Assembly: GCA_043809745.1 (NCBI GenBank)
Contig: JBDROU010000079.1
Span: 1,163-65,162 of the forward strand
DNA from: a bacterium
Lineage (GTDB): Bacteria > Elusimicrobiota > JBDRMW01 > JBDROU01
Reading direction: 5' to 3'
DNA: 64,000 nt
Below the pieces are notes generated by a model that saw only the letters and a program-made list of their open reading frames with translations, did not search any database and was not told where the DNA came from. The translations under genes and the position numbers were made by a program. Positions 1 to 8,600 of this stretch are shown here, in pieces; position 1 is the first letter of the stretch, and each line of letters begins with the position of its first letter.

Positions 1-2600
1 GTGAGATTTATACTGAGATCCTGGATCACAATTACGAAATACACACAACGAATTCGTATAATAATCTAAACCAGATTACAAACAGCCAGAAAACAGAAAC
101 TCGCGGTGATAAGATAACAGAGGAAACGGCAATATACAGTTATGACATTTACAATCGGTTAAAAACTTCAACAACCGAAATTCATGAGCGGGCCAAAGAT
201 GGCAGTTCGCTAGATCTGGATAACAGCTATACTGTGATGCTTGCCATAGGTTCATATTCCTATATTGACGAATCAGGTAATGAGCATAAAGTTGATGCCG
301 GATATAATGACCTGGATCAGGTGATACGTCAGGAAAAGACAGTCATAGAAGGTGCCAAGCATGTGGTGGAAGCTTGCACTGAAGACATTGAGTATGATAC
401 GAATAACAGGATAGAATCAAATACGATCAGCAGGCGTGAGATGGAGCGCAAAATAGATGATAAAACTGGTAAGTTTGTGCTATTTGATGTAAACGGCGAT
501 GGTATAATATTAGATAGCTTAAGCTTTATAAGTATGCAAATACAAGAATATTCAGTGTTAGGGTTAGTAAAACGCCAGACGCGTATGAGCGTCACAGATG
601 GGCTTACGGTAGTAGAGACATCTAAATCGGATCTAAAATACAATACAAGCGAACATCTGGTATCAAGCTATACAGAGTATCATGAGTCCGGCACGCCGAA
701 TTCCGCGGGCAGCGATGCGCTAAACACAACTTACAACATCTTACTGACAATAAAAGATGATGGCATCAATGAACTCGGACAAACAGAAAAGCAGACAAAG
801 ATTAAGGAGGAGCTGAGGGACGGCGCTGTGATAACAAAGAAGACCGATGAGGTGATGAGCTATGATGAAAAGAACCGGTTAGAGTATTCACATATTACCA
901 CAACAGAGAAGAGCATAGATGCTGAAGGTGAGGTTGTACAGAATAAAGTATACACATCAGAAAGTTACATTGGCTGGGAAAGCTTTAAGGATGCAAGCGG
1001 TGAAACGGTGGAGGGCAGGGAAGGCTACAATGAATTAGGGCAGGTAGTATTTATGAGGAAGGTAACGGAAGAAGGGAACAAGACTATCGATGAATACAAC
1101 CTGCATAATAAGATATACGATAATTCTAACCGTTTAGTTTACAGCTACAGTAAGATTAATGAACGCGGTTCGGATAACGAGGGGAACGAACTAAATCATT
1201 CCTATACTGTAGAAAACCGCATAGCGAAAAGCATGTTCATTAATAAAATTACAGACCCGAAGAATGTGAGTATAACAGAAGCTTCCTATATAAGCGGTTA
1301 TAACAATCTGGGCCAGGTGATCTGGCAGGAGCAGATAACAAAGGATGCAGGCAAGACTACGACCAGGATTACCAATACAGAAAATGGTTACAACAGTTCA
1401 GGATGGCTTAAGCATTCAGATTATAAGTTCAGTGAAACCGGATTATCAGGTGTAGAAGGCAGTGATAATTTGAACAAGCAGTACAGGGTGGTGACTGATG
1501 TAATAGATTTTAATGAACGCGGGTTGGCTATTAAGCAGACCAGTACAAGCACAGATCAGAACGAAGCGGCTAACAAGACAATTGAGGATATGACAATCGG
1601 TTATGACAAACAAGACCGAACCATTAATACAATCACAGCGGTCACAGAAAAATCGACAGACGGGCAAGAACACAGCTACACCGTTGAAAGTTCAGTAGGC
1701 GGGTACAGCTATACTGATGAGCGCGGCAGTATTGTGGAAGTAGGAGAGTATGAAGGTTACAACGCATTAGGCCAGGCGGTCTTAACCTGCCGAAAAACAA
1801 CAGACGGCGGCATCACACGGGAAGAGTATGACATAAAGGGCGCCAAGCGATCATATAACGCTTCAGGGTTGCTTGAGCACAGTATAAGCCGAATTCATGA
1901 GACCGGGAAAGCGGATATTGGTGTTGAAGGCGCCGAGGATTTGAATGATTATAAGGAAGTAGAGCTCAACATAGAATCATACAATGATCTGCAGCAGGTG
2001 AATAAACATACCAGGATAACCCAAGATCTCATAGTTGGTGAGGTAGTAGGTGGAAACGAAACGCTTGAGCTAGGCTTAACCACTACTGAGGAGGCGCAAT
2101 TCACCTATGATGATCAGGGCAGACAGAAAAAGGTGGAAAGGCTTGTCAGCCAGCAGGAAAAGGACTGGAGCGGAATTTTGAAAGATGTTTCCGGTGACGG
2201 CATCGTTCTTGACAAAACCAGTTATTCGGTATTCGAGATACTCAGCGGTTACGATGCTCAAGGGAATTATTATGAAGGATATAACGATCAATCCCAGCTG
2301 GTGATGAGCAAGACAACCACTTATGAAGATGCTCAACTTTTTTCTGGGGATATTTCGCTTAATGATGTAGATGAGATGGATCTCTCACAGGTAAAGAGGA
2401 CCACCGAATCCACCTACTTTAATGAAAGCGCCAAAACTTACGATATTAATAGATACAAAACTCAATTCAGCAACGCATCTTTAGCCTATACCCATAGCAA
2501 CGCGAGTATCAAAGACCTTGATTATCAGACCGGCGAAAAATTGAGCGCTTCATACGAGTATACCAGCATTTTTAATTATAACGAGCTAAATCAGCAGACA
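1..2600 (+). repeat. intragenic segmental duplication, copy 1 (partner at 4229-6850)
   Basis: nt 1-44 gtgagatttatactgagatcctggatcacaattacgaaatacac matches 4229-4272 gtgagacttatacggaaatccttaatcatgattacgaagtatac. Protein colinearity (IGSYSYIDESGNEHKVDAGYNDLDQVIRQEKTVIEGAK vs IGHYTYIDESGNELTVETGYNDLDQVIRQERTIIEGAK; LTYDDQGRQKKVERL vs LTYDDQGRQKRVERL) holds over ~870 aa at constant ~4.2-kb offset. Confidence 0.8.
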
Positions 2601-5600: not shown

Positions 5601-8600
5601 GGAGCAAACCTTTATAACCAACAGGGGTGGTTGAAACATTCCGAGCATACATTTAATGAATACGGGAGTTCAGGTATTTCAAACAGCGATGAGCTTAACA
5701 AAACCTACAGTGTTACAACGGATATCCTTAAGTTTACCGAAGCAGGATTGGCCGAGGAGCAGGAAAGGACTACTGTTGATTATGTCAAGGACCGGGACGG
5801 AATAGTTTCAGAGGGCAAAACGATGTCAGAACACCTGGAGTCCATGATTTATGACGAAAAGGGGAGAAATATATATTATAAAAATAATATTACCGAAACG
5901 GGAGAAGGGCTTGAGCACTCTTATTCAATGATTCAATCCGTTGGTAATTATGTTTATACAGGCGATAACGGAACTCTTCTAAGTGTTGGGGAAGGATATA
6001 ATAATCTGGGCCAGATGATATTTACCCAGAAAGTAACAGTAAATGAAGACGGGAATCACACGATTACGGAATCCGACAACCTATACGCGGGCAGGAAGTA
6101 TGACACAAACGGTTTCTTGAGCTACAGCCACAGCCGCACATGGGAATCGGGTTATTCGGATACCGAAGGCAGCGACGATCTGAACGATGTGAAAGACATA
6201 GAAACATTTAATACGTACAGCGGATTTCAAATAAGCCAGCAAACAAAAATTATAAGAGAACAAAATGTTTCGAATGACAACAAATTATCTCTGGGTATCA
6301 CCGTAACCGAAGAGGCGACGCTTACTTATGATGATCAGGGCAGGCAGAAACGCGTTGAGCGGCTGACACGCCGTCAGGAGCTGGACAAAAACGGTAACCC
6401 GAGCGATATTTCAATGGACGGTGCAATACTGGACAAACACAGTTATTCTGTTTTTGAATTACTGAGCGGACAAGATTCAGCGGGAAATTATTATGAAGGT
6501 TATAATAATCTTTCTCAGCTGGTGTTAAGCAGAAGCACCACATATGACGATCCGCGGTTATTTAACAGCAATGGGACGCTGAAGACGCTGTCAGATGAAG
6601 AGCTCTCAAAAATCAAAACCAACGTTGAAAGCACTTATTACAACGATGTTGATAACAAGTATGATCCCCTTTATGACACATACGATATTAACAGATATGA
6701 CAGCCAGGGTAGGCTGGCTTACTCGCATTCGAAGGTTCAAATAACCGGTGAAGACGCAGAAAGCAGCACAGAGCTTAATTATTCGTATGACTATTCAAAT
6801 AGCTTTACCTATAATTCTTTAGATCAAGTGATCAGCAATGACAAGATAGTGCATGAGAATAACTATGATGCTGACGGATTTATTACCAGTGTTAAGACTT
6901 CTGAACAGCTTATCAACTACCTTTACAATGCAAATCAAACAATTAAAAAAACTGAAACATATTCGTACGAATACTCTGGCGATAAGGGCAGTTTTAGCTA
7001 CAGCTTAATGAGTGATATTGTATATGACAGCCTTAAACAGGCGCGTTCATACAAAACGGAAAACCGGCTGCTGAACAAGGGATCGCGTGATCAGGTGCTT
7101 GAAGCTGAGAACCGCTATGAACTTGTGGCGAACACGATGAAGTTAACAGAAGAAAATGTAGCCGGCATCACCTATAATGAATTGGGTCAGCAAAAACACA
7201 GCGTTTCTCAAATACATGAGACCGCCGGCGCTGCCGCGCTTGATGATCAGGGTAACCCGCTGACGCTGGATCACCGTTATACAATGACAACCGATTACGG
7301 ATTTAACGCTGCCGATATCGAAATGCCGGAAGGCTCCTCGCCGGAAGAAATTGCAGATCTTATTAAAACTTCCGGCAAAGGATATAACAATCTGGGGCTT
7401 GCCTGGCATGTAATGAAGGTTACTATAAATGATGACGCTAATCCCCAAAAGGAAACCACAACGAAAAGCATTATAGGATATAACTTTTACGGCAAGCAGA
7501 GTGTTACGACATCGTTTATAACGGACAACGTTAATCAGGATTTAACCATTAAAAATGAGACTCACTACCTGGTATATGACGGTGCAGGTAACGTGTATCG
7601 TACAAAGACATTCAATACCGAATACGGCACTGATTCGGGAACAGATGATTATCTGAACCACACAACGGTTACCGACACGTATTACGAATCGTATAACGAT
7701 CTGAATCAGGCAGAAAACCGTACTCAAATAGTGGCAGACGGCGACAGGATTACAATTACAGAGACTGTTGATCAGGAAGGTAACAAGACCGTATTGAGGT
7801 ATGATATCAGAGGGAATGTAATAGAATCAAACCTGAAGGTCAGGGAGCTGAACGCTGGGTTTACATACAATGATCCTGATACCAATGAATTTGTGACGGT
7901 TGGTGAAGGTGAACGGCTGGATAAGACGTATTTTGTGAAAACTACTACGGAGTACAACAACCAGGGACTTGCAGCAAGAATATTTAAGAGCACCATTGAA
8001 ACAGAAAGCTTAACCGGCGGCAACAAGGTGACAAACCAGCTTGTCACGAATGATTACTATGCCAACAGCAGGCTCAAAGAAAGCCGTGTTGACGGCGAAA
8101 GTGTTTATACCATTGATGGCAGTGAAAAGAAAAAATATGATTGCACAATTACCACTTATGGAGAAAGCGACTACAACGGGCTGGGTCAAGCCCTGCGCTA
8201 TGCAAGAACGAGCTACACCTTAGATGACCCGAGTTATACAACTGAAATCCCAACCGGGAAAAGGAATCCGGCACATAAGGAAGCCTTGGAGCCGCTGAGC
8301 GTCAAGATTGTTACTGAAAATGTCAGTAATATAGACTATGATTCCGAGAACAAGCTGGTATTTTCAATAAGTGATTTCACCGAAACTGCAGGGTGGCTGG
8401 CAGCCAATGAAGGATTAGAGCTTAATCACAGTTATACCGTCGAGGATGCAAAGGAGTATAACAATTTGGGACTGGTGACCACAGAAAGGCGCAGGATTTA
8501 CAATGATGACGCAAACCCGGCCAAAGACACCACAGAGATATCGGAAAGGACGTACAACATATTTGGCCAGCTTACGAAAGGCGTTACCACAGTTAAAGAT

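Follow-up and report, generated by a model that had tools for sequence, protein, structure and literature searches.

An old block duplication in the predicted beta-hairpin repeat array of a giant gene from an Elusimicrobiota bacterium

The Giant Gene and Its Repeat Array

The window analysed here is the whole 64-kb stretch (64,000 nucleotides (nt), 41.5% G+C) at positions 1,163–65,162 of contig JBDROU010000079.1 (assembly GCA_043809745.1), which comes from a bacterium of the Elusimicrobiota. A single reading frame dominates this window, a giant open reading frame (ORF) of at least 50.8 kb that is nearly without recognisable domains. The only stop in the frame-3 translation is codon 16,951, and an ORF listing in which a start codon is required gives 234–50855 for the same gene. 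The first ~6,400 amino acids (aa) of the encoded protein are made up of an array of about 60 repeat units of 60–105 aa each, which is followed by a candidate transmembrane helix and a very long tail (Table 1). Within the array, two colinear stretches form a real intragenic duplication of at least 2.6 kb, and both copies are old and maintained as protein under purifying selection.

The repeat unit has the consensus GYNxLGQV..T..E...YDxxGRLxYS....E.G....L.H.Y.V. A hidden Markov model (HMM) of the unit, iterated on the protein itself, yields 63 unit matches between aa 18 and 5839. The regularity of the array is also apparent from two alternating motifs in the first 5,900 aa, as YDxxxR occurs 33 times and Y[ND]x[LH]xQ 28 times.

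Extent and Register of the Two Copies

Comparison of the window with itself by BLASTN returns the off-diagonal line at about 4.2 kb that the first-pass annotation had predicted. Two matches make up this line, nt 1–1346 with nt 4228–5567 (71.2% identity, E = 0, offset 4227 nt) and nt 2085–2330 with nt 6306–6551 (68.8% identity, E = 1e-18, offset 4221 nt), and these are the only intragenic nucleotide matches in the window. At the protein level aa 1–875 are colinear with aa 1410–2285, and about half of the 2.6 kb duplicated stretch is detectable at this level only. The first 500 aa are 64.6% identical and aa 500–875 ~42%, beyond which identity is lost. The same trend in bins of 50 residues is uneven, with 66–74% identity for residues 1–300, 50–66% for 300–500, 28–44% for 500–690, 58–64% for 690–790, 34–38% up to residue 875, and noise thereafter. 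The earlier reading was correct in its coordinates, in the colinearity of the proteins and in the decay of similarity to the right. Its estimate of 75–80% nucleotide identity was too high, as a codon alignment of the copies (854 codons in total) gives 57.4% aa and 62.9% nt identity, the values being 67% and 71% for the first 450 codons and 47% and 54% for the rest, and no 300-nt window exceeds 75%. Six other array segments, aligned in unit register as controls, reach 24–32% aa and 40–45% nt identity. The similarity of the two stretches consequently exceeds that of either to other parts of the gene, which together with their colinearity is what characterises an intragenic segmental duplication.

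The duplication is in register with the repeat units. When all units are compared with one another, units 1–10 are each best paired with units 18–27 at a constant lag of 17 units, and the scores of these pairs (116–304 versus a background of ~45–60) are 2–5 times those of the next best partner. The lengths of the units have also been kept, being 82, 82, 74, 85, 91, 71, 82, 74, 100, and 99 aa for units 1–10 and 82, 81, 74, 85, 90, 73, 86, 77, 91, and 103 aa for units 18–27. On the right, the similarity of the copies stops at the unit boundary at aa 858/2269. On the left, the window opens with 17 residues that are matched by the end of unit 17 (aa 1410–1426), which corrects the earlier statement that window position 1 corresponds to where copy 2 begins. 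The homologous stretch is thus under way before nt 1, so that the left limit is set by the edge of the window and not by biology, and the true boundary lies upstream.

Age, Selection and Assembly

The age of the duplication can be judged from synonymous sites. Nei–Gojobori estimates in bins of 100 codons give a proportion of synonymous differences (pS) of 0.58–0.94, and the corrected synonymous divergence (dS) is above 1 or undefined in every bin; in the left 1.35 kb it is ~1.1–1.4. The nonsynonymous divergence (dN) is 0.18–0.60, with a dN/dS of ~0.07–0.16 where dS is finite. The saturation of the synonymous sites together with the low dN/dS indicates that both copies are old and have been kept as protein. 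These values refute the earlier description of the duplication as recent, as neither low synonymous divergence nor long near-identical DNA is observed.

A same-codon test, which asks how often identical residues share a codon relative to the expectation from codon usage, is independent of protein constraint and distinguishes two parts of the duplication. Over the first 450 codons, 160 of the 295 identical residues share a codon (~117 expected; z = 2.7–3.4 per 150 codons), while past codon 450 there is no excess, at 81 of 189 (~75 expected; z < 0.7). A control pair for this test, aa 4–448 with aa 237–675, was self-overlapping and is invalid. Because the excess is confined to codons 1–450, the left 1.35 kb appears to be somewhat younger than the remainder or to have been gene-converted at a later time.

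The longest exact word common to the copies has 26 nt, and no longer exact direct repeat occurs anywhere in the window; Tandem Repeats Finder (TRF) detects no long tandem repeat in the duplicated region. With shared words this short, it was not possible for these two copies to be collapsed or expanded during assembly, and the sequence gives no sign of an assembly problem for them. The earlier concern that such duplications are classic sites of assembly collapse or expansion consequently finds no support for this pair.

Predicted Fold of the Array

The fold of the array has been probed by structure prediction. An AlphaFold2 model of aa 18–431, for which the input was a 14-row alignment of paralogous five-unit blocks, has a predicted local distance difference test score (pLDDT) of 80.6 and a predicted template modelling score (pTM) of 0.69. 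The model is all-beta, with ~25 strands of 10–13 residues joined by short turns, and the array is accordingly predicted to fold as an antiparallel beta-meander. A Foldseek search with this model found no significant match in the PDB.

Comparison with RHS and YD-Repeat Proteins

The repeat unit resembles the RHS/YD-repeat proteins, for which the comparison set comprised the Pfam family PF05593 (RHS_repeat) and the TIGR01643 YD repeat, as found in TcB/TcC toxin shells, bacterial Rhs effectors, and teneurins. Each unit has two Y-[DN]-x-x-G-[RQ]-[LV] motifs that are spaced like consecutive YD hairpins, and the predicted structure is composed entirely of antiparallel beta-hairpins. The YD hairpin motif (YDxxGR[LI]) is repeated along the sequence, a resemblance at the level of the motif only. 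Furthermore, the hydrophobic segment after the array is rich in Gly and Ala, similar to that found after the Rhs core in Chryseobacterium proteins.

The profile comparisons are largely negative. Neither PF05593 nor TIGR01643 matches the whole ORF at E <= 0.01 or any of three 900-aa array segments at E <= 10 (Pfam and NCBIfam), and no Rhs core is matched in NCBIfam over aa 1–900, 1410–2309, and 2460–16950. Regular-expression searches of the giant ORF find no DPxG[LWMIV] and no YDPxxGRF, and profile searches of PDB sequences do not match Rhs, Tc, or teneurin chains. An hhalign comparison of the unit profile with canonical Rhs proteins, in which the pattern-selected stretch was masked, gives scores of 22–33 in five of six cases versus 8–20 for shuffled sequences, weakly above the latter. 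Since the curated models, the Rhs core, the DPxGL motif, and the PDB profile searches are negative and the hhalign signal is weak, the unit is called YD-like here and is not assigned to the RHS family. A degenerate YNxLGQ...YDxxGR DNA motif also retrieves canonical Rhs toxins with typical cores and variable C-terminal ends, which include L049, L053, L062, and L044 (Chryseobacterium), L079 (Francisellaceae), and L057 (Bacillus sp. DJP31). The capture of these toxins indicates that true Rhs repeats sporadically carry the unit's two-hairpin motif.

Relatives and Other Giant Proteins

A search of 1.84 billion protein representatives with the unit profile returns 137 proteins at E <= 1e-3, of which 59 reach E <= 1e-10. 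Many of the 137 are fragments of 2–8 kaa, no Pfam domain was found in the family proteins that were scanned, and their identity to the window protein nowhere goes above 44%. For the duplicated block the sampled relatives reach 28% at most, far below the identity of the two copies. As no sampled relative comes near the latter value, the duplication is read as lineage-specific. In addition, GTDB genomes were scanned with the degenerate DNA motif, followed by filtering with the unit HMM. The 118 loci obtained are mostly canonical Rhs genes or chance matches, and the weak HMM matches among them are partly circular, as the scan itself selected for the motif. Multi-unit members were identified in metagenome-assembled genomes (MAGs) of Planctomycetia (L027, L056), Elusimicrobiota (L015, L116, L117), Omnitrophota (L030, L112), and Saccharibacteria (L039), and in unclassified MAGs (L055, L097). 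A search for related loci with aa 1–470 found none in GTDB genomes or JGI metagenomes, and a word-indexed protein search with aa 1–900 and the unit alignment A3 also returned none, its index being too insensitive for relatives of 25–45% identity.

Block duplication is how the array has grown, in agreement with the earlier proposal that giant genes grow by such duplications, and multi-unit block duplications of every age are present in the relatives. In P0001 (3,094 aa), aa 801–1200 and 1462–1861 are 100% identical over 400 aa (offset 661 aa), with flanks of 73%, 65%, and 50% identity. Either this pair is of truly recent origin, by block duplication or gene conversion, or the record contains an assembly artefact. 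The end of another relative, P0070 (4,945 aa), which is apparently cut off, is 44% identical to aa 859–1060 of the window protein and is the closest match to the array near the duplication. P0070 has a hydrophobic N-terminus resembling a signal or anchor sequence, which suggests by analogy that the arrays are exported. The array of the window protein is probably exported as well, with one transmembrane helix tethering it to the 10.5-kaa tail.

For Elusimicrobiota, Planctomycetota, and Omnitrophota, proteins of 10,000 aa or more are on record and reportedly frequent (10.1101/2023.11.21.568195), and these phyla are among those with multi-unit members of the present family. In the Omnitrophota giants, Rhs-like antiparallel beta 'tubules' of ~1,500 aa are predicted (West-Roberts et al. 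2023, 10.1101/2023.11.21.568195). The window protein is similar in that a long unannotated stretch of a very large ORF is predicted to form a continuous antiparallel beta sheet, and it fits the description given there, in which a protein of 10 kaa or more has a long single antiparallel beta sheet within an unannotated stretch. In contrast, the Omnitrophota tubules are described as having exterior alpha-helices at regular intervals, along with many transmembrane regions (10.1101/2023.11.21.568195), whereas the confident 414-aa model obtained here is essentially without helices and the ORF has one strong transmembrane candidate; the likeness to a tubule is by published description only.

According to a 2026 preprint, the repeats of giant proteins generally go back to ancient duplications that no longer show as tandems at the nucleotide level (10.64898/2026.06.07.730766). 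The present duplication resembles the giant repeat proteins described there (10.64898/2026.06.07.730766), in which blocks of several domains are duplicated and diverge until the nucleotide tandems dissolve while the protein architecture persists. It differs from giant repeat proteins in general in that no Pfam family covers the repeated unit and the block probably comprises 17 units. A single such large-block pair is still visible in the 50.8 kb of the gene.

Origin of the Duplication

Ancient internal duplication is a feature of giant repeat proteins, the super-repeats of titin being an example. The observations on the window are best explained by an old, lineage-specific block duplication within the beta-hairpin repeat array of the giant gene, a reading to which a probability of about 80% is assigned. 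At least ten consecutive units (at least 875 aa, 2.6 kb) would have been copied to a position 17 units (1,409 aa, 4,227 nt) further downstream with the unit register preserved, most likely because array units underwent unequal homologous recombination with one another or because replication slipped between them. In its simplest form the event would be the tandem duplication of one 4.2-kb block of 17 units, and the first 1.6 kb of copy 1 would then lie just upstream of the window; the tandem geometry is suggested by the equality of offset and block length. The copies would then have diverged to synonymous saturation under purifying selection with their unit lengths kept. The left 1.35 kb would have been homogenised later by gene conversion or would be the product of a younger, overlapping event. 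The functional outcome would be a longer continuous antiparallel beta-meander.

Two other explanations would remove the need for an old duplication altogether. The similarity might reflect the general resemblance among array units, since all units have a common consensus and other segments of the array align at 24–32% identity. However, ten consecutive units are each best matched exactly 17 units away by a wide margin in score, and BLASTN detects this pair and no other intragenic pair at the DNA level, which leaves this explanation with next to no probability. A recent segmental duplication, with a copy number possibly altered by misassembly, is also very improbable. It is consistent with the presence of the off-diagonal line, with the length of the contig that carries the L-lactate dehydrogenase of the window, only 66,777 bp, which may mean that the assembly breaks in or near the giant gene as it would at repeats, and with the identical internal copies in P0001. 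The nucleotide identity of the copies is nonetheless only 63% overall and 71% at best with dS above 1 everywhere, and a longest shared word of 26 nt, with no long tandems, is below the k-mers usually used in assembly and far below the length of reads.

The remaining alternatives accept a specific relationship of the two blocks and differ in its history. In a dispersed event, a block of ~10–11 units would have been inserted seven units downstream, or the reverse, and units 11–17 would be original spacer without a homologue upstream. Such an event would account for the restriction of the pairing to units 1–10 and 18–27 and for units 11–17 having no partner within the window, but homology already runs at window position 1, and the block therefore extends further upstream. 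Moreover, unequal crossing-over yields an adjacent copy in one step, while a non-adjacent, in-phase insertion requires two in-frame junctions, and a dispersed origin is accordingly regarded as rather unlikely. It is also possible, although doubtful, that the duplication is much older than it appears and that concerted evolution through repeated gene conversion has kept the blocks alike, in which case the gradient of identity would reflect conversion tracts and not age. This would fit the patchy protein identity (68%, then 28–44%, then 58–64%, then 34–38%), the restriction of residual synonymous similarity to the left 1.35 kb, and the comparable profile of P0001, in which 100% identity is flanked by 73%, 65%, and 50%. 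Yet even the best tract still has a dS of ~1.1–1.4, which indicates that no conversion has occurred for a long time, and the patchiness also fits uneven protein constraint, as dN varies and pS is near saturation.

Several points weigh against an old tandem block duplication or parts of it. Units 11–17 have no specific partner among units 28–34 in the all-against-all comparison, and no longer array of 4.2-kb super-repeats is seen downstream. In the tandem geometry the partner of nt 2628–4229 would fall in the 1.6 kb upstream, outside the window, beyond which the public contig apparently adds at most 2.8 kb. The drop in identity near aa 500, which coincides with a 10-residue indel, could reflect uneven constraint and not two events, and the same-codon test draws on 295 and 189 identical residues. 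With regard to the functional outcome, a 1,169-residue model of the array is of low confidence (pLDDT 52), too low for the higher-order shape of the array or the closure of a hollow tubule to be read from it, and the export and topology of the protein are read from one relative (P0070) and one hydropathy peak.

An old block duplication is an ordinary case of the lengthening of a giant repeat gene. The locus need not be distrusted as an assembly artefact, nor is it evidence of ongoing expansion. Of greater interest are the gene in which it lies and the repeat family of that gene, which is rare and matches no curated family. The unit profile (alignments A1 and A3) could help in annotating "dark" parts of other giant proteins, and paralogous copies with saturated synonymous sites and conserved unit lengths provide a ready alignment for structure prediction. 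Tentatively, the unit may define an undescribed and very rare family of beta-hairpin repeats that is at most distantly related to Rhs/YD repeats and is confined to very large proteins in MAGs of the Planctomycetes–Verrucomicrobia–Chlamydiae (PVC) group and candidate phyla. In the present protein it would form an exported beta superstructure that spans at least 6,400 aa and is tethered by the single transmembrane helix to an orphan tail of 10,500 aa, and the 17-unit block (~1,400 aa) might be a structural module equivalent to one complete 'tubule' of the Omnitrophota type.

Other Features of the Window

The positions of the duplication and of the other features of the window are collected in Table 1.

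Table 1. Features of the giant gene and of the genes downstream of it (positions in the window)
Feature	Nucleotides	Residues	Strand	Remarks
Giant ORF	3–50855	at least 16,950 aa	+	Open from first in-frame codon to stop; 5' end outside window
Predicted beta-hairpin repeat array	3–19232		+	~60 units; iterated HMM and alignments
Copy 1 as visible in window	3–2627	1–875	+	Tail of upstream unit and units 1–10
More similar sub-tract of copy 1	3–1352		+	Partner nt 4230–5582; 67% aa, 71% nt identity
Intervening units 11–17	2628–4229	876–1409	+	Between aligned blocks; 5' part of copy 2 in the tandem model
Copy 2	4230–6857	1410–2285	+	Tail of unit 17 and units 18–27
Fascin/FRG1-like beta-trefoil, inserted in array	13593–13964	4531–4654	+	Pfam PF06229 (4.4e-09), PF06268 (6.6e-09)
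Strong transmembrane-helix candidate	19254–19346	6418–6448	+	Kyte–Doolittle 19-residue mean 1.96
K/E/L/A-rich tail	19347–50852	~10,500 aa	+	Composition shift; without recognisable domain
Two tandem Macro-domain paralogues	50944–51888, 52019–52954	~312 aa	-	Weak DarG-like PADLOC matches
AbiEii toxin/AbiEi antitoxin pair, complete	53392–54189, 54152–54811		-	PADLOC 1.9e-94, 3e-60; 2.5 kb downstream of giant gene
Protein without family match	55513–57495	660 aa	-	Divergent neighbour of the 886-aa adenosine deaminase protein
Protein with C-terminal adenosine deaminase domain	57722–60382	886 aa	+	PADLOC CARF_ADA-like, 1.7e-11

Comparison of the whole giant ORF with Pfam identifies the beta-trefoil as its sole curated domain. 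Sequence searches of the PDB agree, matching this domain to 7zoh_A (2.1e-07) and to FRG1 (2yug_A) and nothing else in the ORF, while an NCBIfam scan of aa 1–900, 1410–2309, and 2460–16950 gives nothing meaningful. The best solved relative of the beta-trefoil by sequence, 7zoh_A, is a chain named 'Glycoside hydrolase family 18'. The transmembrane segment listed in Table 1 is the only strong candidate in the ORF and is located at the junction of the Y/T/N-rich beta array and the K/E/L/A-rich tail.

The tail has no matches in Pfam, NCBIfam, or PDB sequences, or among the 137 members of the unit family. It holds two more old tandem duplications on the plus strand, at window positions 29292–31427 (aa 9764–10119 with 10117–10475) and 48774–50786 (aa 16258–16587 with 16621–16928), each with copies ~26% identical and modules of ~355 aa; the second pair forms the C-terminus of the giant protein. 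The giant ORF also contains an imperfect short tandem repeat at 38284–38375 (+), which has a 12-nt period and 7.7 copies according to TRF.

Downstream of the giant gene lie the two Macro-domain paralogues, the AbiEi/AbiEii pair, the adenosine deaminase protein, a flavodoxin-like reductase, L-lactate dehydrogenase, and UvdE. The Macro-domain paralogues are 68.7% identical over 515 nt and constitute the only other DNA-level repeat in the window. The gene pair for the 886-aa and 660-aa proteins may be a defence module. The L-lactate dehydrogenase is 100% identical to MFH1283502.1, followed by MFH1282414.1 from another unclassified MAG at 75% and then by proteins of Endomicrobiales, Elusimicrobiota, and Omnitrophica at ~66%.

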